From a virus (taxonomy: Duplodnaviria > Heunggongvirae > Uroviricota > Caudoviricetes), in IMG/VR virus record IMGVR_UViG_2687453300_000007: a stretch of 40,665 nt of DNA; one strand, given 5' to 3'. The notes under the pieces are model-generated. The model was not told the origin of the DNA. It ran no database searches and saw nothing but the letters and a program-made list of their open reading frames with translations. The translations under genes were made by a program, and so were the position numbers. The stretch's first letter is position 1. The number at the start of each line of letters is the position of its first letter. This document shows, piece after piece, positions 6,084 through 14,033 of the stretch.

Positions 6084-8906
6084 ATGACGGCAGAGTACCT
6101 CAGGGACTGGCAACAACCGCGCCACGCAGTGGGGCGTGAAGGAACGGGGATCCCCGCTCCTGAATCCGCGCTTTCCTCCTGGCTGGATGCCTACCGGGCA
6201 GAGAACGAGCGCCGCCAGGAAATGGCTGATGCGGCGTTCTCAGCCACGCCGCTGGGCAACCTGATTAATAAAAGCCTGGACGCACAGGAAAAACAGGACA
6301 AAACCATCACACTGGCAGGAGACGCCAGAAAACAGGCACGTGGCGCGGTGGATGAAGCCATGGCCTCGCTGCGCCTGCTGCCGTCCTATCTGCGCGATCC
6401 GCTTATTCGCCACCTCTCCTTCCTGCGCAAAAAACAGGAAGCCGATCGCCGGAAAGGCAAAAAGAGCTGGCAGGCGGAACGCTATGCACGCGGAACCCTG
6501 CGCAAAATATTCGAACGTCTGGATAGCACTGACGGACGCTGGCTGACACCGGGTTATCGCTCCCTTGCCGGACGCGAACGCCTGGACGATTTGCTTTACC
6601 TGCCGCAGCTCAACAAACACCAGATACAGACGCTGGCCACCATGACGGCGGCGATGTTCAGCAGCACCTTCGAAAAACTCTGCGATGGCTTTGGCGCGAC
6701 CGATGGCGAGCTGACCATGGATGTAACCCTGAAGGCGTATCAGATGCTGGCCCGCATGGCGTTACACCTGCACGCCATGCCTCCACATTATGACGCACTG
6801 ACAACAGACAAAGACCGGAGGAACGAACCGGACACGGAGCTGCTGCCGGGCGCAATCCTTCGCCTGACCTGTGCGGAATGGTGGAAACGCAAACTGTGGC
6901 TGTTACGTTGCGAGTGGAGAGAAGAACAACTCCGCGCCGCCTGTCTGGTTTCCAGAAAAACATCACCCTATCTGAGCCAGGACGCGTTAAGCGAGTTTCG
7001 CGCACAGCGCGAGAAAACACGCGATTTCCTGAAAAGTTTCATGCTGGAAAATGAAGACGGGTTCACGATTGATCTCGAGACAGTGTATTACGCGGGAGTA
7101 AGTAACCCGGTTCACCGTAAGGCAGAAATGATGGCCACCATGAAGGGACTGGAACTTCTGGCCGAAGCCCGTGGCGACAAAGCGGTGTTTCTGACTGTCA
7201 CCTGCCCGTCAAAATACCACGCCACAACGGAGAACGGTCATCCGAATCCCAAATGGAACGGGGCCACAATGCGCGACTCCAGCGATTACCTGGTTAACAC
7301 GTTTTTTGCGGCGGTCCGCAAAAAACTGAACCGCGACGGCCTGCGCTGGTATGGCATCCGCACGGTGGAGCCTCATCATGACGGCACCGTGCACTGGCAT
7401 ATGATGGTCTTTGCACATCCGGAAGAAATCGACACCATTGTGTCCCATACCCGCGATATTGCCATTCAGGAAGACCGCCACGAGCTGGGCAATGATATTA
7501 CTCCGCGCTTTAAGGTGGAGTATGTCGACGGCTCAAAAGGCACGCCAACCAGCTACATCGCCACCTACATCGGAAAGAACCTGGACAGCCGCGCCGTGGA
7601 TGGCATCGACCCGAAAACGGGCAAGCCACGCGTGGACCACGAAACCGGAAAATCAATGGCCGAGAGCGTGGAGCGCGCCATCGGCTGGGCGCGCCTTCAC
7701 CGGGTCCGTCAGTTCCAGTTCTTTGGCATCCCCTCCCGTCAGGTGTGGCGTGAACTGCGCCGCCTTGCCAGCCAGATGGCACGCAATCCGGAAGGCCCGC
7801 AACGGCTGAAAGATGATGCAATGGATGCGGTACTCGCTGCCGCCGATGCCGGGTGTTTTGCCACCTACATTGAAAAACAGGGTGGCGTGCTTGTTCCACG
7901 CAAGGACTACCTGATTCGCACCGCCTACGACCTCGCAGATGAGCTGAACGATTACGGCGAACAGAGCGTACAGATTTACGGGATCTGGTCACCACTCATC
8001 GGGGAATCCTCCCGTGTGTGCACGCATCCGGATAACTGGAAGCTGGTAAGACGTAAACCGGAAGCGGAAGACAGCGCCCGCGAAAATGGTTTTGACCTTC
8101 AGGGCGGCCCTGCCGCCCCTTGGACTCGTGGCAATAACTGTCCCCGTGTACAGGAAACGGACAACAACGGGACAGAACAGCCGGAAGAACGGCCAGCACC
8201 GTGGCCGCAGCTCCCTGACGGCGTTGAAGTGAACGAATGGATGCGCTCACTGAAACGACACGAACGCCGGGCGCTGATGCGTTCGCTTCGTGACAAACAG
8301 GCAAAAAACAGCAGCGATGAAATGCAGAGCTGGACACAGAGCCGCAAACAGCAGCGGCCTTTGCCTGATAACCACGAATTACTCGCTAAAGAATGGCGGG
8401 AGTCTGCTGAATCTCTCGGCCTGCATATCGGTGAACAACAGATGCAGCACCTGTTACGGGGCGGCAGTCTGTACGTTGACGGCAGCATCATTGCACCGCA
8501 GGGATTTGAAATTGTACGCAAACCGGATACCCGCCCGGACAGCCGAATCACGCAGCTCTGGCAGCGCCTGAGCCGTAATCATGGCGTAAGCAGCACGGAG
8601 ATCCGCCATAACCCGGTCGCCAGCTATCTGGCACAGCTGGGGGCATCAGACCCTGAAGCCGCCGCACGCCTGGCATCCACACTTCAGCAGGGCCAGAACA
8701 CCATGAAAACACCCGTTACCGTGCTTTCTGACATGCTGCGCGCCATCCGCGACGCAGAGCACGCACAGAGAATCAGTGAAACCACTGAACGCGCCAGCCG
8801 CAAAGCAGACCTGCTGCGGGGTGGCCTGACCAGTGGAAACAAAAAACAGACAGAAACGGGACTTACGAATCCCGTAAATGAGCAAAAAACGCGCAGCGAT
8901 ATATGA
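6084..8906 (+). CDS. A: Rolling-circle replication initiation endonuclease (P2 gpA-like)
   Basis: 940-aa ORF carrying the HUH-type motif region …TVEPHHDGTVHWHMMVF… and tyrosine-bearing segment …YIATYIGKN… typical of P2 A-family proteins. Confidence 0.9.
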   Translation: MTAEYLRDWQQPRHAVGREGTGIPAPESALSSWLDAYRAENERRQEMADAAFSATPLGNLINKSLDAQEKQDKTITLAGDARKQARGAVDEAMASLRLLPSYLRDPLIRHLSFLRKKQEADRRKGKKSWQAERYARGTLRKIFERLDSTDGRWLTPGYRSLAGRERLDDLLYLPQLNKHQIQTLATMTAAMFSSTFEKLCDGFGATDGELTMDVTLKAYQMLARMALHLHAMPPHYDALTTDKDRRNEPDTELLPGAILRLTCAEWWKRKLWLLRCEWREEQLRAACLVSRKTSPYLSQDALSEFRAQREKTRDFLKSFMLENEDGFTIDLETVYYAGVSNPVHRKAEMMATMKGLELLAEARGDKAVFLTVTCPSKYHATTENGHPNPKWNGATMRDSSDYLVNTFFAAVRKKLNRDGLRWYGIRTVEPHHDGTVHWHMMVFAHPEEIDTIVSHTRDIAIQEDRHELGNDITPRFKVEYVDGSKGTPTSYIATYIGKNLDSRAVDGIDPKTGKPRVDHETGKSMAESVERAIGWARLHRVRQFQFFGIPSRQVWRELRRLASQMARNPEGPQRLKDDAMDAVLAAADAGCFATYIEKQGGVLVPRKDYLIRTAYDLADELNDYGEQSVQIYGIWSPLIGESSRVCTHPDNWKLVRRKPEAEDSARENGFDLQGGPAAPWTRGNNCPRVQETDNNGTEQPEERPAPWPQLPDGVEVNEWMRSLKRHERRALMRSLRDKQAKNSSDEMQSWTQSRKQQRPLPDNHELLAKEWRESAESLGLHIGEQQMQHLLRGGSLYVDGSIIAPQGFEIVRKPDTRPDSRITQLWQRLSRNHGVSSTEIRHNPVASYLAQLGASDPEAAARLASTLQQGQNTMKTPVTVLSDMLRAIRDAEHAQRISETTERASRKADLLRGGLTSGNKKQTETGLTNPVNEQKTRSDI

Positions 8907-8951
8907 AGCGCGCACAAAACAGGCAAAAACGGGATTTCAGAATCCCGTAAA
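8854..8951. repeat. Two copies of a 25-bp palindrome-containing element flanking the A stop codon
   Basis: AAACGGGACTTACGAATCCCGTAAA at 8854..8878 and AAACGGGATTTCAGAATCCCGTAAA at 8927..8951 (22/25 identical), each with 6-bp arms ACGGGA/TCCCGT. The second copy sits about 30 bp upstream of the ParM-like start. Confidence 0.6.
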
Positions 8952-8982
8952 CGATTAATTAATCAACATAAGGAAAAGCGAC

Positions 8983-9942
8983 ATGAAAATTTGTATCGAC
9001 GACGGCTCCACCAACATCAAGCTGGCATGGACTGAGAATGGCGAACGCCGCAACGCCATCAGCCCGAACAGCTTCAAGTCGGAATGGTCTGCGCCGTTCG
9101 GTGGCATGCAGCCCGCGAACTACATGCTTGATGGCGTGCGCTATGGTTTTGATCCGGTTAGCGATCGCTTTGTCCAGACGACCGACACGCAATACCAGTA
9201 CAGCGATGTGAATGTAATCGCCATTCATCACGCGCTGGTCAAATCAGGCATCACGCCACAGGAGGTGGATGTGGTTGTCACCCTGCCACTGAGCGAGTAT
9301 TTCGACACAAACGCACAGCCGGACATGGCCAACATCAACCGCAAAAAAGCGAACGTTATGCGCCCGGTGGAATACCAGAACGGCGAAGCATTCACTATCC
9401 GTAACGTGCGGGTTATGCCTGAATCCATTCCGGCTGGCTTTAAAGCACTGGCTGACATGAGTCCGTTTGAATCCCTGCTGATTGTGGATTTAGGCGGAAC
9501 CACGCTGGATGTGGCAAAGGTTCAAGGGCAACTGGCAGGTATCAGCCAGGTGTTTTGCGATCCACACGTAGGCGTTTCCCTGATGGCCGATGCCGTACTG
9601 TCGGTGATGGCCACTAACGGTATGCGCACCAGTCACCACATCGCCAATACCATTATCGAACATCGCCATGATGAAGCCTGGCTGCGCCAGCACATCCACA
9701 ATGACGCGCATTACGCCAGCCTGATGGCGGTTATTCGTGAAAAGGAAGAAACACTGAAACAACGCGTGATCCGCGCGCTGGCGGTTTTTTCGGGTTACGG
9801 GCGGGTGATGGTTGTCGGTGGAGGGGCGGAGATTGTGGCACCCGCTATCCGCGAAGTCTGCGGAGTTAATGCGACTTTCATCGCGGACGGGGTGCCACAG
9901 TTTGCTCTGGTTAATGGGCTGTACGCAATGGACAAGGAGTAA
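8983..9942 (+). CDS. parM: ParM/StbA-like actin-type segregation ATPase
   Basis: N-terminus MKICIDDGSTNIKLAW…ISPNSFK…YSDVNVIAIHHAL closely parallels plasmid R1 ParM as I recall it (MLVFIDDGSTNIKLQW…ISPNSFK…YSDVNVVAVHHAL). Also has the DxGGxT phosphate motif (IVDLGGTTLD). Confidence 0.8.
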   Translation: MKICIDDGSTNIKLAWTENGERRNAISPNSFKSEWSAPFGGMQPANYMLDGVRYGFDPVSDRFVQTTDTQYQYSDVNVIAIHHALVKSGITPQEVDVVVTLPLSEYFDTNAQPDMANINRKKANVMRPVEYQNGEAFTIRNVRVMPESIPAGFKALADMSPFESLLIVDLGGTTLDVAKVQGQLAGISQVFCDPHVGVSLMADAVLSVMATNGMRTSHHIANTIIEHRHDEAWLRQHIHNDAHYASLMAVIREKEETLKQRVIRALAVFSGYGRVMVVGGGAEIVAPAIREVCGVNATFIADGVPQFALVNGLYAMDKE

Positions 9943-9946
9943 ACCA

Positions 9947-10261
9947 ATGACGACACCAACCAGACGGATAAGTTTCTATCTGAAGCCCGCCGCCGTCAAG
10001 AGTGAACAGGAGGCGTGCAATTACCTCGATAGCCTGCCAGCCTCCGAACGCAGCCGCGCGCAACGCGCGGCCTTTCTGGCTGGGCTAGCGCTCATAAAGC
10101 GCAACCCAGCATTTGCCTACTGGATGGCCGAATGGCCAGAGGACAACCTCCCCTTCAATACCGTTAGCATCAAGGAAACATACCAGGATAATCAGCCTAG
10201 CGGAGTTGAATGCAATTTTTATAAAATAAAAAAGAATATTCAGACCTTATTCCCAGAATAA
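9947..10261 (+). CDS. parR: ParR-like centromere-binding protein (putative)
   Basis: ATG 9947 with AAGGAG SD 7 nt upstream, 5 bp after the parM stop. Segment RRISFYLKP…YLDSLPASERSRAQRAAFLAGLAL resembles the RHH N-terminus of R1 ParR (…LDSIPQGERSRLNRAALTAGLAL…). Confidence 0.65.
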   Translation: MTTPTRRISFYLKPAAVKSEQEACNYLDSLPASERSRAQRAAFLAGLALIKRNPAFAYWMAEWPEDNLPFNTVSIKETYQDNQPSGVECNFYKIKKNIQTLFPE

Positions 10262-10344
10262 TCTGATAATTGTATGTGAACTAATAAAATACAGACCAAC
10301 ACATCATTCTGGCACCCTTGCTAACAGGGTGCCAATGTTTCAAA

Positions 10345-11187
10345 TCATGATGAAATTGCCGAAGTTTTTTTATCGTGCTGAAGTACCGCAAATGCCATTA
10401 AAACCTCAAGAGAATAGCGGCGATAATACTTAACAAAACCATAATAAAATACTCGGGATGCAGCAATACAAAACAAGAGAAGAAAACAAAAAGGTAACAG
10501 TCTGATATTTATATCTATTAAAAAGGATAGAAGGAGCAGGAACATAAGCAACCAGACTGAAGCGAGAAAAACAAATGTAATGTTTCTACAAAAACCATAC
10601 AAAGCAACATAGTTTTGCATTTTCACCTGATGATTTTTAGAATGTTCATACACATAATGATAAGCAAGGCGAAAAAGATCGCCCCTCAAGCCCTTACGTC
10701 GATATAGCGTAGATACAGAAAAAACATTTATATAACCATCTCGTATTTGCGGCCAAAAGACTTTAATAAGTATAGAATGCAGTGTGGTTTTATGATGTTC
10801 TGCTTTATCAAAAGCTGATACAGGAAATAAAAAAACTCCACGAATAAAATTAACTATACTGAACTTAGTATTATGTCGTTTTATTTTCAGGGAGCTTCTT
10901 TTAGAAAACAGATAAATTGAAGGATACCCAAGTTTACTGTTCATGTATTTTTCAATTAAACAGGATGATAGAATAGATATGAAGTGACCTGAAATATATG
11001 ATAGAACGATTAATACCACATATATAAATACACTTATTATTTCTTTATATTTCAGGATATGGTTAAGAATACCTTCTATATAAACAGGGTTAATTTCAAT
11101 AGAAAACAAAAAAAGGATAAACAGGAATAACCCACCTGGAATTAGATAGCCCAAAAAGTCATAAAATGAAAACGGATTCTGTGTCAC
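10345..11187 (-). CDS. Hypothetical polytopic membrane protein (280 aa, about 4 TM)
   Basis: GTG start at 11187 with strong SD (AGGGGGAAG). Two N-terminal and two C-terminal hydrophobic helices flank a soluble stretch of about 125 aa. AT-rich with atypical codon usage. No family recognised. Confidence 0.6.
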   Translation of the reverse strand: MTQNPFSFYDFLGYLIPGGLFLFILFLFSIEINPVYIEGILNHILKYKEIISVFIYVVLIVLSYISGHFISILSSCLIEKYMNSKLGYPSIYLFSKRSSLKIKRHNTKFSIVNFIRGVFLFPVSAFDKAEHHKTTLHSILIKVFWPQIRDGYINVFSVSTLYRRKGLRGDLFRLAYHYVYEHSKNHQVKMQNYVALYGFCRNITFVFLASVWLLMFLLLLSFLIDINIRLLPFCFLLLFCIAASRVFYYGFVKYYRRYSLEVLMAFAVLQHDKKTSAISS

Positions 11188-11226
11188 ACTTCCCCCTGTG
11201 TTACTTGTAAATTAAAGGGTAAAACA

Positions 11227-11724
11227 TTATTTGTTTTTCCGTAAAGGATTAGCTTTCCATCTTCTTACTAACCATTCGAATTCTTGATATGTAGTATCCG
11301 AATTAATGCTTTCTCTGATTGCTTTAATTAATGGCTCGGCAATATCATATGTCTCTACAACTGTTGTGTAAGATGTTCTTTTTATCATTTTTTCATCATA
11401 AATACCTTCACGAATACTTACAGCAACTCGCTCGTAAAAATTTAAAATATATTGAAATTTTCGACGCTCGGCCATTTCTTCATCTGTTATTATGCAACCA
11501 TCACAAGGAAAAACATAAGAACGAAATGATTTGCCTGAACGATGCACTTGTTTCAGGGTATGCAATGACTCTATATATTGCATATCTTGCCGACTCTCAA
11601 AAAGAAAGTTGGCCGTTTGAGTTTTTTTTGCGGTACGCACATTGTAGATAATGGTTCCAATGGCAACCAAAACGCCAAGCAGAACAATAGCATTGCTGAT
11701 GATTTGTAGTGTTATTGGGTTCAT
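11227..11724 (-). CDS. Hypothetical single-pass membrane protein (165 aa)
   Basis: N-terminal TM helix (ITLQIISNAIVLLGVLVAIGTIIY) followed by a soluble domain of about 135 aa. Lies 39 bp upstream of the 280-aa gene on the same strand. AT-rich. Confidence 0.6.
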   Translation of the reverse strand: MNPITLQIISNAIVLLGVLVAIGTIIYNVRTAKKTQTANFLFESRQDMQYIESLHTLKQVHRSGKSFRSYVFPCDGCIITDEEMAERRKFQYILNFYERVAVSIREGIYDEKMIKRTSYTTVVETYDIAEPLIKAIRESINSDTTYQEFEWLVRRWKANPLRKNK

Positions 11725-11738
11725 CCTATTTCATCCAT

Positions 11739-11765
11739 AAAAAAGGCGGGGAGCAAATCCCCGCC
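11739..11765 (-). terminator. Intrinsic terminator/attenuator immediately upstream of the 165-aa gene
   Basis: On the minus strand: 8-bp GC stem GGCGGGGA / TCCCCGCC with a 5-nt loop, followed by TTTTTTAT. It ends 14 nt before the ATG at 11724. Confidence 0.6.
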
Positions 11766-11785
11766 TCATTAGAGGTCAACGTAGC

Positions 11786-11821
11786 TTAGAAACCATCAAA
11801 TTCATCATACATTTTTTTCAT
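11786..11821 (-). CDS. Putative 11-codon leader peptide (MKKMYDEFDGF)
   Basis: Minus-strand ATG 11821 preceded by GAGGGGG SD at 5-nt spacing. Stop at 11786..11788, about 20 nt upstream of the terminator stem. Confidence 0.3.
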   Translation of the reverse strand: MKKMYDEFDGF

Positions 11822-11921
11822 ATCAACCCCCTCATAGAAATCATAACCACGTTTTGTGGTTTTTGTGACGTATAAACTACATCAAAGGCAAGCCACGGTC
11901 AAATATATAGGCATGCTTACC

Positions 11922-12020
11922 TGCACAAAAGTGCACAAATTTGCACAATTTTTTTGAACGACTTTTTACCCTTCCGGCCCGCATGGCGGCTGGATCCGTC
12001 AAGGATCCGTGCGTGCACAA
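11922..12020. repeat. Iterated TGCACAA heptamers at 10-bp phasing, plus GGATCCGT direct repeat
   Basis: TGCACAA at 11922, 11932 and 11942 (exact 10-bp period) and again at 12014. GGATCCGT at 11992 and 12003. Located in non-coding DNA between the cargo operon and the orphan gene. Confidence 0.55.
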
Positions 12021-12320
12021 AAAAACGCGCTTTTTCTGCGCGCAGGTGACGGGGGAACAGCCCGCGTTTCAGGGGGTAAATAGCATTCCCTGAACGATGT
12101 CGCAGAGACACAACAGAATGGCCATATTTCTCACGCTGAGCATGAAAAAGGCGTGAGGGCTTTTGATTTGATGGGGTGAAAGGTAAGGCCGTCAAAATCG
12201 CACTGAGGCAGCGAGAACATGCAGTCAACGCGGTGGAATTGCGTAAGAGTCTGACCGTCGATGGTGGCGATAAACTGGAAGGCGTCGTGAAATTATCTGA
12301 TTGATACAGGAGCTGGAGAG

Positions 12321-12347
12321 CCGGGGCATAAATTTTTTATGCCCCGG
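12321..12347. repeat. Near-perfect 27-bp palindrome
   Basis: CCGGGGCATAAATTTTTTATGCCCCGG, with no flanking U-tract on either strand. About 100 bp upstream of the 174-aa gene. Confidence 0.5.
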
Positions 12348-12447
12348 CGAAGCAGCAGACAAGCGAAGCGCGTCAGCGATACGGCACCTTGCCGACCATA
12401 CTTCATAAGTGCAAAATACGAGCAAAGAAATCAATGGAGGCTGTCTT

Positions 12448-12972
12448 ATGGTCATTAATTACAAGCAGTTAAGAGAAAAACGGGAGCAGGTAAAGGAGAG
12501 CTTTCGCCGCAATGAAGATCTGACCCCGCTTGTACGCCTTGCCCAGGGCATTGTTGATGCTTATGAAATCTCGCTGGAGCTGCCATCACAGACCTGGACA
12601 GATAGCGACGGTAATCGCCAGCATTACGTTTCATGCGGACTGGAAGCAGCCGAAGGATTTCGCAGAATGCCTTTATCCCAGATCCCTGCCGCTACCCCCA
12701 AAGCACGGGGCAGCAATGATGAGCGAAAACTGACTTTTAGTATTGAAACGGTGGTTGACGACACACCTGGCGAAGTCGCGTTCGTGCACACTCCTGTTTC
12801 GATCGCAATGTATAACGATGAAATACAGGTTCGCGTTAATAATAATATCGTGCCACTTAAAGAAGGTAATTCACCCTACACCACCGTTTGTGAAGCCATT
12901 CAATATTACGTTCTCTCTGAAATTGATAATCTCAAGCCTGACGGCACCCAGAAAATGGTTCAACTCTGGTAA
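12448..12972 (+). CDS. Hypothetical protein (174 aa) between the cos region and portal gene
   Basis: ATG 12448 with GGAGG SD 7 nt upstream (the track ORF starts at an upstream GTG). Convergent with Q. No family recognised. Confidence 0.5.
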   Translation: MVINYKQLREKREQVKESFRRNEDLTPLVRLAQGIVDAYEISLELPSQTWTDSDGNRQHYVSCGLEAAEGFRRMPLSQIPAATPKARGSNDERKLTFSIETVVDDTPGEVAFVHTPVSIAMYNDEIQVRVNNNIVPLKEGNSPYTTVCEAIQYYVLSEIDNLKPDGTQKMVQLW

Positions 12973-12977
12973 AAAGG

Positions 12978-13004
12978 ACAGCCCCATCACGGGGCTGTTT
13001 TTTC
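12978..13004. terminator. Bidirectional intrinsic terminator between the 174-aa gene and Q
   Basis: Stem ACAGCCCCATCACGGGGCTGT with TTTTTT on the plus strand and a T-rich run on the minus strand. Confidence 0.6.
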
Positions 13005-14033
13005 ATCAAGAAGAGCATAAGAGTTAAAACGGATCACCTCTTCGCCAAGCCAGTCATTGATGTGCTTCATAGCCTCCATAACGGGCATCAGCTCGTTAAT
13101 TGCGTAAACCCGCGCTGCCTTCTCCACATCGCCAAACGCACTTTTTTCGCCCGGCATCGCCCCCATCAGTTGCGGCGGAACGCGGTGCGCAGCCAGCACA
13201 TCATCACGGGATGCCGCCTTAACATTCATGAATTCATCTTTTGCGGTGATCTGCTGGAACGGCAAAATTTGCACCCCCTCTTTGCCCCCGTTGGGCGCAT
13301 GAATGAGCACGTTTTTAAACGCACCACCACCACGTGCCCCCTGTAGCGTTTCTTTCAGGGAGTCCATGCTTTCGCGGTTTACCTGCGCTGCACCGATGTA
13401 GATGATGCACCCGGCGTGGGATCCGTTGTCGTAGTACAGTTTTCTGAACATGTCCGCCGAATGAGAAAGGCTGGCCGAGAGTAATGCGCCAAGATATTCC
13501 GGCATGCCGTAGATTTCCTGGTTAATATCCGGATTCATCAGGTGGCACACTTTGCCAGGACGAAACTGAAACGCGTCCTTGCCATCCTGCACATACCACC
13601 ATGATTCAAGATCGCTTCCGCGTCGCATGTATTTCGCCAGGGCGTGCCGTAATTTAAGCGGTTCGCCGAGCATATTGCTTCGAAGCTCAAGGAATGCGTT
13701 ACCGAACACAAACCAGTCCAGCGCCAGCGCCGAGAAATCCTGCCGGGAAAGCAGCGGGTGCGGGATGTAGCAACCGAGTAATACATTGCGCTTAAAGTAA
13801 AGCGCAGACTGATGCCAGGACGTTTGCCGGGCTGCTCTTGCCAGACCGTACCAGTCCACCGGGGTTTCATACCACCGCCCGTTATCAGCACAGTACATAT
13901 TGTCCAGCAGGTCATGCCCGGTCAGGCGATAAGGACCATCAAATGTGAATGCACTGAGCGATGATTCTTTCCTGAGCGCATCAGCGAGATCAATGCGTGA
14001 ACTCATGCGCACTTTTTTATTTTTTCTGCTCAT
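12987..14033 (-). CDS. Q: Portal protein (P2 gpQ-like)
   Basis: 348-aa ORF, P2 Q-like in size and position (leftward, adjacent to P, near the cos side). Confidence 0.85.
   Translation of the reverse strand: MSRKNKKVRMSSRIDLADALRKESSLSAFTFDGPYRLTGHDLLDNMYCADNGRWYETPVDWYGLARAARQTSWHQSALYFKRNVLLGCYIPHPLLSRQDFSALALDWFVFGNAFLELRSNMLGEPLKLRHALAKYMRRGSDLESWWYVQDGKDAFQFRPGKVCHLMNPDINQEIYGMPEYLGALLSASLSHSADMFRKLYYDNGSHAGCIIYIGAAQVNRESMDSLKETLQGARGGGAFKNVLIHAPNGGKEGVQILPFQQITAKDEFMNVKAASRDDVLAAHRVPPQLMGAMPGEKSAFGDVEKAARVYAINELMPVMEAMKHINDWLGEEVIRFNSYALLDEKTAP

Follow-up and report, generated by a model that had tools for sequence, protein, structure and literature searches.

Two AT-rich genes for membrane proteins are encoded on the minus strand between positions 10262 and 11870 of the IMG/VR virus record IMGVR_UViG_2687453300_000007 (Caudoviricetes; 40,665 nucleotides (nt), the whole of this stretch being referred to here as the window). 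They appear to represent two cargo cassettes, unrelated and inherited separately, that are stacked in the cos-proximal hotspot of a P2-family (Peduoviridae) prophage, with roles like those of a toxin-antitoxin (TA) or abortive-infection module and of a prophage moron, respectively, a reading to which a probability of about one half is assigned. The first encodes a 165-amino acid (aa) protein of the Pfam family DUF4760, and the second a 280-aa protein with four predicted transmembrane (TM) helices. The locus itself is real, correctly placed in a defence hotspot by the annotation that was first made from the letters alone (the first-pass annotation), and already catalogued, while its description there as a two-gene system was a mis-parsing. 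Rousset et al. (2022), who defined the cos-adjacent hotspot between gpA and Q, where about a quarter of the P2-like elements of E. coli carry a partition system, record this very arrangement, under identical protein accessions, in their Table S5A, and the locus is therefore not new to the catalogue. Both accessions and the name DUF4760 are absent from the other supplementary files of that study that were examined, including Table S2 of tested systems, and a literature search with DUF4760, the protein accessions and a peptide motif returned no functional study. A 2026 survey of P2 and P4 hotspots describes many unknown hotspot genes as predicted, and often validated, to be antiviral; DUF4760 is not mentioned in its main text. 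What is new here is the division into two cassettes, the assignment of the 280-aa protein to the Csx27 superfamily, a deeply conserved unannotated micro-open reading frame (micro-ORF) upstream of the DUF4760 gene, and a fold resembling that of the EP domain of plant EDS1-family proteins. The locus is thus ordinary for the field, while the coupling of a micro-peptide to DUF4760 is unexpected and directly testable.

The division into two cassettes derives from a survey in which approximately 160 related loci, taken from species-representative genomes, from assemblies and from viral contigs of IMG/VR, were scored with the proteins of the window. Apart from the nearly identical module of this E. 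coli phage with its ParMR genes (DUF4760 identity of 99 % or more; four-TM protein 86 to 100 %), no locus has both genes, and the proposal that they form one functional two-gene system could therefore not be upheld. Four-TM relatives at 33 to 47 % identity are accompanied by DUF4760 or P2 marker genes in 0/67 loci, and DUF4760 relatives at 33 to 90 % identity by a four-TM gene in none of about 70. In the sister phages L130 and L131 the gpA, ParM and portal proteins are 98 to 99 % identical, and DUF4760 (78 % identity) lies directly against ParR, with no four-TM gene present. The two genes also differ in divergence within a single locus, with DUF4760 of L034 being 99 % and its four-TM protein 86 % identical. 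The DUF4760 cassette is found beside a cos-like site in around thirty P2-like phages of many genera, and also in podovirus-like prophages of Klebsiella. Enterobacter soli, Rahnella and Entomohabitans have it on its own, as an insert of some 0.75 kb flanked by housekeeping genes (Enterobacter genomes with cassettes: L014, L017 and L025). The solitary chromosomal and non-P2 prophage cassettes have the small, self-contained form that is typical of TA-like modules.

The 11-codon ORF (11821..11786) and the intrinsic terminator (11767..11743) that directly precede the DUF4760 gene had been overlooked. From upstream to downstream, the features of this cassette are:
11840..11869, minus strand: promoter-like site ahead of the micro-ORF (GTCACA, 18 nt, TATGAT), from a consensus scan only.
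11827..11833, minus strand: strong Shine-Dalgarno (SD) sequence of the micro-ORF, GAGGGGG, read from the sequence and kept as AAGGGGG or AAGGAGG in related loci.
11786..11821, minus strand: unannotated micro-ORF MKKMYDEFDGF, 11 codons plus TAA, found upstream of DUF4760 in 57/60 distinct loci.
11782..11795, minus strand: predicted 5-bp hairpin enclosing the micro-ORF stop codon (RNAalifold), with CG to UA covariation, in either direction, at two pairs.
11771..11779, minus strand: conserved box UUGACCUCU, complementary to the SD region of the micro-ORF and kept in closer relatives.
11743..11767, minus strand: intrinsic terminator from a terminator scan, with a 10-bp G+C-rich stem, a 5-nt loop and T6, ending 18 nt before the DUF4760 start codon.
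11227..11724, minus strand: DUF4760 gene (ATG start, 165 aa), encoding an N-terminal TM helix and a predicted cytoplasmic helical domain of about 135 aa.

Sixty distinct upstream regions, belonging to DUF4760 proteins of 100 % down to 33 % identity, were compared. The micro-ORF is present in 57 of these, a hairpin with a T-run in 56 and both in 53. The last seven residues of the peptide are FDEFDGF or YDEFDGF in 35/57 cases, while distant lineages drift to DEYEGF, DEFEWV and DVIDGL. The residues are kept through free synonymous variation (GAT 41/GAC 13, GAA 26/GAG 26, TTT 32/TTC 13, GAT 19/GAC 28 and GGT 17/GGC 31 at successive codons), which suggests that the peptide, or its translation, is under selection. 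Predicted structure in the transcript is supported by compensatory changes in the terminator stem across loci and by covariation in 8 and 7 of 24 sequences at the two pairs of the stop-codon hairpin. The UUGACCUCU box pairs with the micro-ORF SD in the minimum-free-energy fold (74 % of alignment cells paired, with little covariation), and the 18 nt between the terminator and the DUF4760 ATG contain GGATGA. The terminator hairpin is the site of an IS421 insertion (window positions 11749–11761; 13-bp target duplication) in several ST131 and other E. coli genomes (L217, NZ_OX637964), by which DUF4760 is uncoupled from its leader.

The micro-ORF is also found on its own. A scan of IMG/VR for FDEFDGF-stop coding sequence recovered 48 stretches, where about 0.5 chance matches would be expected by our own estimate, and sixteen of these are not followed by DUF4760. 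They include three lambdoid phages (L171, L172 and L184) with the micro-ORFs MLDEFEGFDEFDGF, MFDEFDGF and MFDEFDGFDEFDGF, two of which (MFDEFDGFDEFDGF and MLDEFEGFDEFDGF) carry a tandem duplication of the motif. The micro-ORF of L184 is flanked by the genes for antiterminator Q and holin, as checked against PHROG, and those of L171 and L172 are located downstream of a Q-like gene. In T4-like phages of the Enterobacter PG7 group (L173, L176, L177 and L186), a 21-codon ORF ending in FFDEFDGF is followed by a hairpin and then gp47, and the P2-like phages L181, L191 and L205 have an FDEFDGF-stop micro-ORF without DUF4760, with the intact micro-ORFs of L181 and L205 having no co-directional gene downstream. 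There is thus an asymmetry, in that DUF4760 is essentially never found without the micro-ORF, while the micro-ORF can stand alone. Such a pattern is compatible with a peptide that acts as a ligand or like an antitoxin on a dangerous partner, and also with a leader that is portable and needed by DUF4760. Decayed DUF4760 cassettes are present in L198 and L203, where the micro-ORF region and a degenerate terminator remain but no gene, and the remnant of the DUF4760 start reads ATTACTCTGAAT where ATGACTCTGGAT is expected.

The 165-aa protein has one N-terminal TM segment by hydropathy, with which the helices of the AlphaFold model agree, as had been described in the first-pass annotation. It matches Pfam DUF4760 (PF15956) with an E-value of 1.8e-34 and 119.3 bits against a gathering cut-off of 25 bits (residues 12–156 on profile positions 2–141 of 141), as do all 23 aligned relatives, and it belongs to PHROG 2284 (E 7.7e-74), a family of unknown function. 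Hundreds of homologues were found for the two module proteins, and these sets, together with the family matches and purifying selection, indicate that both are real genes rather than chance ORFs. Compared to the L035 allele, DUF4760 is 88.5 % identical in protein and 74 % in DNA sequence, with a nonsynonymous divergence (dN) of 0.07 and saturated synonymous sites (dS). As a result of this saturation, the high identity between distant phages can be ascribed to selection; recent transfer was considered as its cause in distant P2-like phages and rejected on the same grounds. Searches with NCBIfam for the 165-aa protein and with PDB sequence profiles for the DUF4760 family gave no match, and PADLOC returned only noise-level PDC-S35 matches (E 0.014; 3/23 members). 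An ENA metagenome protein (P0229, 287 aa) with a predicted combination of DUF4760 and PF06541 could have arisen by natural fusion or be an artefact of gene calling.

When the AlphaFold model of DUF4760 was compared using Foldseek, chains of the plant immune protein EDS1 were the sole matches with a query TM-score above 0.5 (0.51 to 0.58; probability 0.69 to 0.97, with poor E-values). The matched part is taken to be the EP domain on the basis that the query is all-helical, the aligned coordinates not being part of the output. The model would thus resemble the EP domain of EDS1-family proteins in fold only, and this is a resemblance rather than family membership; the EDS1_EP Pfam profile found no match at E <= 1 among the 23 DUF4760 members. 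The EP domain of EDS1, PAD4 and SAG101 forms a receptor for ribosylated nucleotides made by TIR proteins, with pRib-AMP/ADP or ADPr-ATP bound at a heterodimer interface. DUF4760, while sharing this fold in its predicted structure, differs from these proteins in having no sequence similarity, no lipase-like domain, an N-terminal TM anchor instead and no TIR gene nearby.

The second cassette comprises the four-TM gene and is followed by a hairpin:
10345..11187, minus strand: gene of the Csx27-superfamily protein (280 aa, four TM helices), starting with GTG and matching PADLOC Csx27 and PHROG 12528, with a ratio of nonsynonymous to synonymous divergence (dN/dS) of 0.28.
10311..10333, minus strand: hairpin GGCACCC, 8-nt loop, GGGTGCC, after the four-TM stop codon and convergent with the end of ParR, read from the sequence.

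The GTG start is preceded 4 nt upstream by GGGGG, and 18/18 aligned homologues begin at the same residue (M-x-QNPFS), which supports the start codon proposed in the first-pass annotation. The arrangement of two TM helices at each end of a soluble core, also proposed there, is recovered by hydropathy, with segments at residues ~8–38, 43–78, 198–222 and 228–252 around a polar core of about 120 aa and agreement of the AlphaFold helices. The protein belongs to PHROG 12528 (E 1.1e-71; function unknown) and matches the PADLOC Csx27 profile over residues 6–244 with an E-value of 1.1e-5. Among 56 diverse four-TM relatives, 35 match the Csx27 profile (best E 1.3e-8) and ten the VI-B-associated tm_4 profile. 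On these profile matches, the 280-aa protein is assigned to the Csx27 superfamily of four-TM proteins, at the level of superfamily and not of orthology. It shares with Csx27, an accessory of type VI-B1 CRISPR systems, the four predicted TM helices and a similar size, but is not considered Csx27 proper because no cas13b occurs nearby, and it differs further in that no CRISPR array, competence, ubiquitin-like or WYL genes adjoin what is a solitary prophage or islet gene. Its neighbours in the prophage are ParR and DUF4760, while its relatives adjoin xis/int, YfdR-like or TA genes rather than cas13b or CRISPR. Csx27 proteins have reportedly been proposed to be membrane channels. Csx27 down-modulates Cas13b, with its function only partly known, according to the abstract of a preprint (bioRxiv 10.1101/092577).

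At E <= 1e-3 the four-TM family has 1103 cluster representatives (clustering at 50 % identity), in Enterobacterales, Pseudomonas, Thioalkalivibrio, Flavobacteriaceae and others. Its conserved motifs (the N-terminal QNPFSxYDFLGYxxPG, a GH motif, YPS, HxxKxQNYVALYGFxR and KFYRRxxLE) are kept across more than 1000 of these representatives, and the dN/dS of the 280-aa gene is 0.28. Among 59 viral loci, the relatives follow YfdQ/YfdR-like genes near the prophage end in lambdoid prophages of E. coli and Salmonella (30/59), or immediately precede xis-int in Enterobacter-type prophages (13/59). In distant bacteria they are solitary in variable chromosomal islets, one of which is rich in HipBA, HicAB and MazE modules. 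No family was found by Pfam and NCBIfam for the 280-aa protein or by Pfam for the 56 diverse relatives, and a PDB sequence-profile search with the family gave no match. The statement that neither protein can be assigned to a family thus stands with respect to named defence families (PADLOC, NCBIfam and Pfam), but not otherwise, as DUF4760 and the Csx27 superfamily could be assigned. The hairpin at 10311..10333 has no adjoining T-run and is kept in L034. In two Pseudomonas loci (L220 and L221), a 156-aa gene with a weak match to the '8xMP' membrane proteins lies 38 nt downstream of a distant four-TM relative, of which it could be a lineage-specific partner.

The favoured explanation of the locus places these observations in two cassettes. 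The first would extend from about 11869 to 11227 and consist of the strong SD, the micro-ORF MKKMYDEFDGF, the stop-codon hairpin, the intrinsic terminator and DUF4760, the latter being a predicted single-pass inner-membrane protein under very strong purifying selection, with a cytoplasmic helical domain of EP-like predicted fold. The second (11187–10345) would be a Csx27-superfamily four-TM gene added downstream, probably co-transcribed with DUF4760 merely by virtue of adjacency. An anti-phage defence or exclusion role is plausible for either protein. For cassette 1, a TA-like abortive or exclusion module with the layout of a type III TA system is put forward by analogy, at roughly one in three, on the basis of its low-dose layout, its self-contained solitary cassettes and the stand-alone peptide genes elsewhere. 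The terminator would hold the membrane protein low relative to an abundant acidic micro-peptide, or to its short transcript, and when this upstream product is lost during infection, or displaced, DUF4760 would be freed to damage or gate the membrane. The stand-alone peptide copies of other phages may then act as decoys. Cassette 2 would be an independent membrane 'moron' of the prophage end which excludes superinfecting phages, or aborts their infection, at the inner membrane, as suggested by its constant prophage-end position, membrane location and solitary inheritance.

Several known systems provide points of comparison. Type III TA and abortive-infection loci of the ToxIN type are ordered antitoxin, terminator, toxin. 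The DUF4760 cassette similarly has a small upstream element, a Rho-independent terminator and a larger gene, and forms a self-contained mobile cassette in phages, prophages and chromosomes, but its upstream element is a translated micro-ORF rather than RNA repeats and its downstream product a membrane protein rather than an RNase. Superinfection-exclusion proteins such as T4 Imm, P22 SieA, HK97 gp15 and Sie2009 are likewise small prophage inner-membrane proteins in moron positions, and DUF4760 has the N-terminal-anchor layout of the lactococcal Sie2009-type proteins; no sequence relationship to them was found, and the DUF4760 domain is predicted to be cytoplasmic. The old and tin genes of P2 and further validated cargo such as the Rst_2TM_1TM_TIR system of the P2-like phage AC1 (Rousset et al. 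2022), which also makes use of small TM proteins, occupy the same cos-adjacent hotspot. They differ in that no homology to them was detected by PADLOC and the interval contains no TIR or other enzyme gene; no TIR domain or Rst profile match was found in the interval or its flanks. The component and partner genes of the systems in PADLOC-DB v2.0.0 were not encountered, with Csx27 for the four-TM protein and weak PDC-S35 for DUF4760 as the only matches.

A number of observations weigh against the favoured explanation. Neither an experiment nor homology ties either protein to phage defence, with PADLOC giving no system-level match, and the toxicity of DUF4760 and its neutralisation by the peptide are hypothetical. 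DUF4760 is strongly conserved (88 % amino acid identity with saturated dS), unlike fast-evolving defence sensors. The micro-ORF and terminator also occur before lysis genes and gp47, which a portable cis-acting leader would fit equally well. In four lineages (L026, L028, L030 and L159) only 21 to 52 nt separate the micro-ORF from the DUF4760 start and a terminator cannot be recognised, from which it follows that the constant partner of DUF4760 is the micro-ORF and not the terminator. Promoter-like sites in the region are no commoner than in shuffled sequence, and the evidence for the candidate promoter is thus weak. Furthermore, AT-rich DNA is often silenced by H-NS in E. coli, and the genes may therefore be unexpressed in lysogens.

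Nearly as likely as the TA-like module is a cis-acting attenuator. The micro-ORF would then be purely a leader peptide, the translation of which, or ribosome arrest at the FDEFDGF-stop, would tune read-through at the terminator. Perturbed translation would be the only condition inducing DUF4760, in this view a superinfection-exclusion or stress protein involved in no peptide–protein interaction. The succession of a short ORF with a strong SD, a covarying stop-codon hairpin, a terminator and a gene is that of classical leader-peptide attenuators, the same micro-ORF and hairpin precede the holin and lysis genes of lambdoid phages and gp47 of T4-like phages, and the invariant C-terminal residues are typical of arrest peptides such as TnaC, SecM and the Erm leaders. 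TnaC, Erm, Cat and pheL, as examples of known arrest peptides and leader-peptide attenuators, likewise combine an ORF of very few codons, a strong SD and a conserved peptide C-terminus with a downstream terminator. However, neither the consensus fold nor the minimum-free-energy fold, the latter of which keeps the terminator, shows an antiterminator, and no Rfam family came near its gathering score over positions 10000–12600, with SorX and isrP falling far below threshold over the leader. The tandem duplications in the lambdoid micro-ORFs look more like a binding motif, and neither the stand-alone micro-ORFs of L181 and L205 nor the four lineages without a terminator would be expected of a leader.

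That neither gene is related to phages, both being lysogenic-conversion or host-physiology genes (membrane homeostasis, DNA uptake or colonisation fitness) in variable prophage regions, is considered unlikely. In its favour, DUF4760 is highly conserved and is also located between housekeeping genes, and no defence family is matched. P2 hotspots also carry non-defence cargo, including partition systems and cytolethal distending toxin (Rousset et al. 2022), and Makarova et al. (2019), as cited in PMC7642515, tied Csx27-family proteins to DNA uptake and modification. Both families are, however, strongly tied to prophages and to variable or TA-rich islets, and the low-dose architecture of cassette 1 suggests a product that is harmful in excess.

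It is similarly doubtful whether DUF4760 forms part of a so far undescribed, micro-peptide-controlled immune module, in which a membrane-anchored relative of the EP receptor would be restrained by an acidic peptide of 8 to 14 residues ending in FDEFDGF, or would sense it, with the stand-alone copies in phages, including virulent T4-like phages, serving as decoys. Were it true, a phage and bacterial protein family would be linked to the plant EP fold, and the translated micro-ORF would represent a new kind of antitoxin or ligand. Likewise, if the resemblance to EP were to reflect common descent or shared ligand sensing, plant and bacterial immune hardware would be connected.

Less probable still is that DUF4760 and the four-TM protein constitute a single two-component membrane system for defence or exclusion, for example a sensor and a pore, encoded as an operon. 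Both genes run in the same direction, separated by 39 nt that contain no terminator, and may well be co-transcribed, as an operon by juxtaposition. The same juxtaposition is seen in the L034 variant despite its 86 %-identical four-TM protein, and the pair occurs in 289/5426 complete E. coli genomes (approximately 5 %, mostly ST131). Almost all of these are 100 % identical, which points to clonal spread rather than independent conservation, while outside this lineage the relatives of each gene are solitary and no co-occurrence was observed in the surveyed loci, with the sister phages lacking the four-TM gene altogether. Finally, that the genes are decaying, H-NS-silenced foreign DNA without current function, as the extreme AT richness and the IS421 insertions in the leader of several genomes might suggest, is very improbable, given ORFs that are intact in 289 genomes, the divergence values of both genes and the motifs kept across the four-TM family.

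That P2-like hotspots yield anti-phage systems is well established, and the above 5 % of complete E. coli genomes with this arrangement belong mainly to the pandemic ST131 lineage. The units to be considered are the micro-ORF with the terminator and DUF4760, and the Csx27-like gene, each on its own, rather than a pair of membrane genes. Gene callers miss the micro-ORF, although its peptide is conserved more deeply than the partner protein and recurs in both temperate and virulent phages. The analysis provides a first functional handle on Pfam DUF4760 and on the Csx27-superfamily members of prophages.

With regard to the prophage setting, positions 10200–11950 of the window match phage vB_EcoM-705R2 and strains of E. 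coli ST131, among them EC958 and JJ1886, at 100 % identity. The gene order comprises a gpA-type replication endonuclease (6084..8906), ParM, ParR, the two-gene module, a 187-aa ORF, the portal gene Q (12987..14033) and terminase P. It bears out the placement of the interval in the cos-proximal A-to-Q hotspot of P2; the interval lies between gene A and portal Q, beside a cos-like site, and its content varies among sister phages, as is the case for cargo of this hotspot. The two co-directional minus-strand genes are present as given in the first-pass annotation (11227..11724, 165 aa; 10345..11187, 280 aa), and so is their sharp AT richness relative to the backbone. That the interval is foreign in composition is supported by GC contents, calculated per 300 nt, of 27 to 39 % over 10200–11850 versus 50 to 63 % in the flanks, and by values of 31.7 and 34.9 % for the two module genes versus 50.5 to 57.7 % for gpA, ParM, ParR, portal and terminase. 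The replication protein encoded at 6084–8906 is 940 aa in length, that of P2 being shorter. It is followed, inside the hotspot, by a ParM/ParR (StbA/StbB) partition pair (window 6084–10261 for the gpA-type gene and the pair), which suggests that the phage can persist as a plasmid.

The cos-like site lies outside the cassettes:
12045..12063, plus strand: cos-like sequence GGTGACGGGGGAACAGCCC, with 13/19 matches to the P2 cohesive end.

Related P2-like loci keep this site, at a distance of approximately 340 nt upstream from DUF4760, while the canonical P2 cohesive end has no match within three mismatches in the window. The 5' arm of the terminator, GAGGCGGGGA (11758–11767, minus strand), agrees at every position with a 10-nt part of the P2 cohesive end. 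The possibility that the terminator is itself cos was considered and rejected, since the same hairpin is present in non-P2 and chromosomal cassettes, and for this reason the match is probably a coincidence. The 187-aa ORF (12409–12972, plus strand; PHROG 5091, function unknown) separates the cos-like site from portal Q. It is found in some near-identical phages and missing from others (e.g. L044–L046), and this patchy presence suggests that the hotspot has in it a third variable cargo gene.

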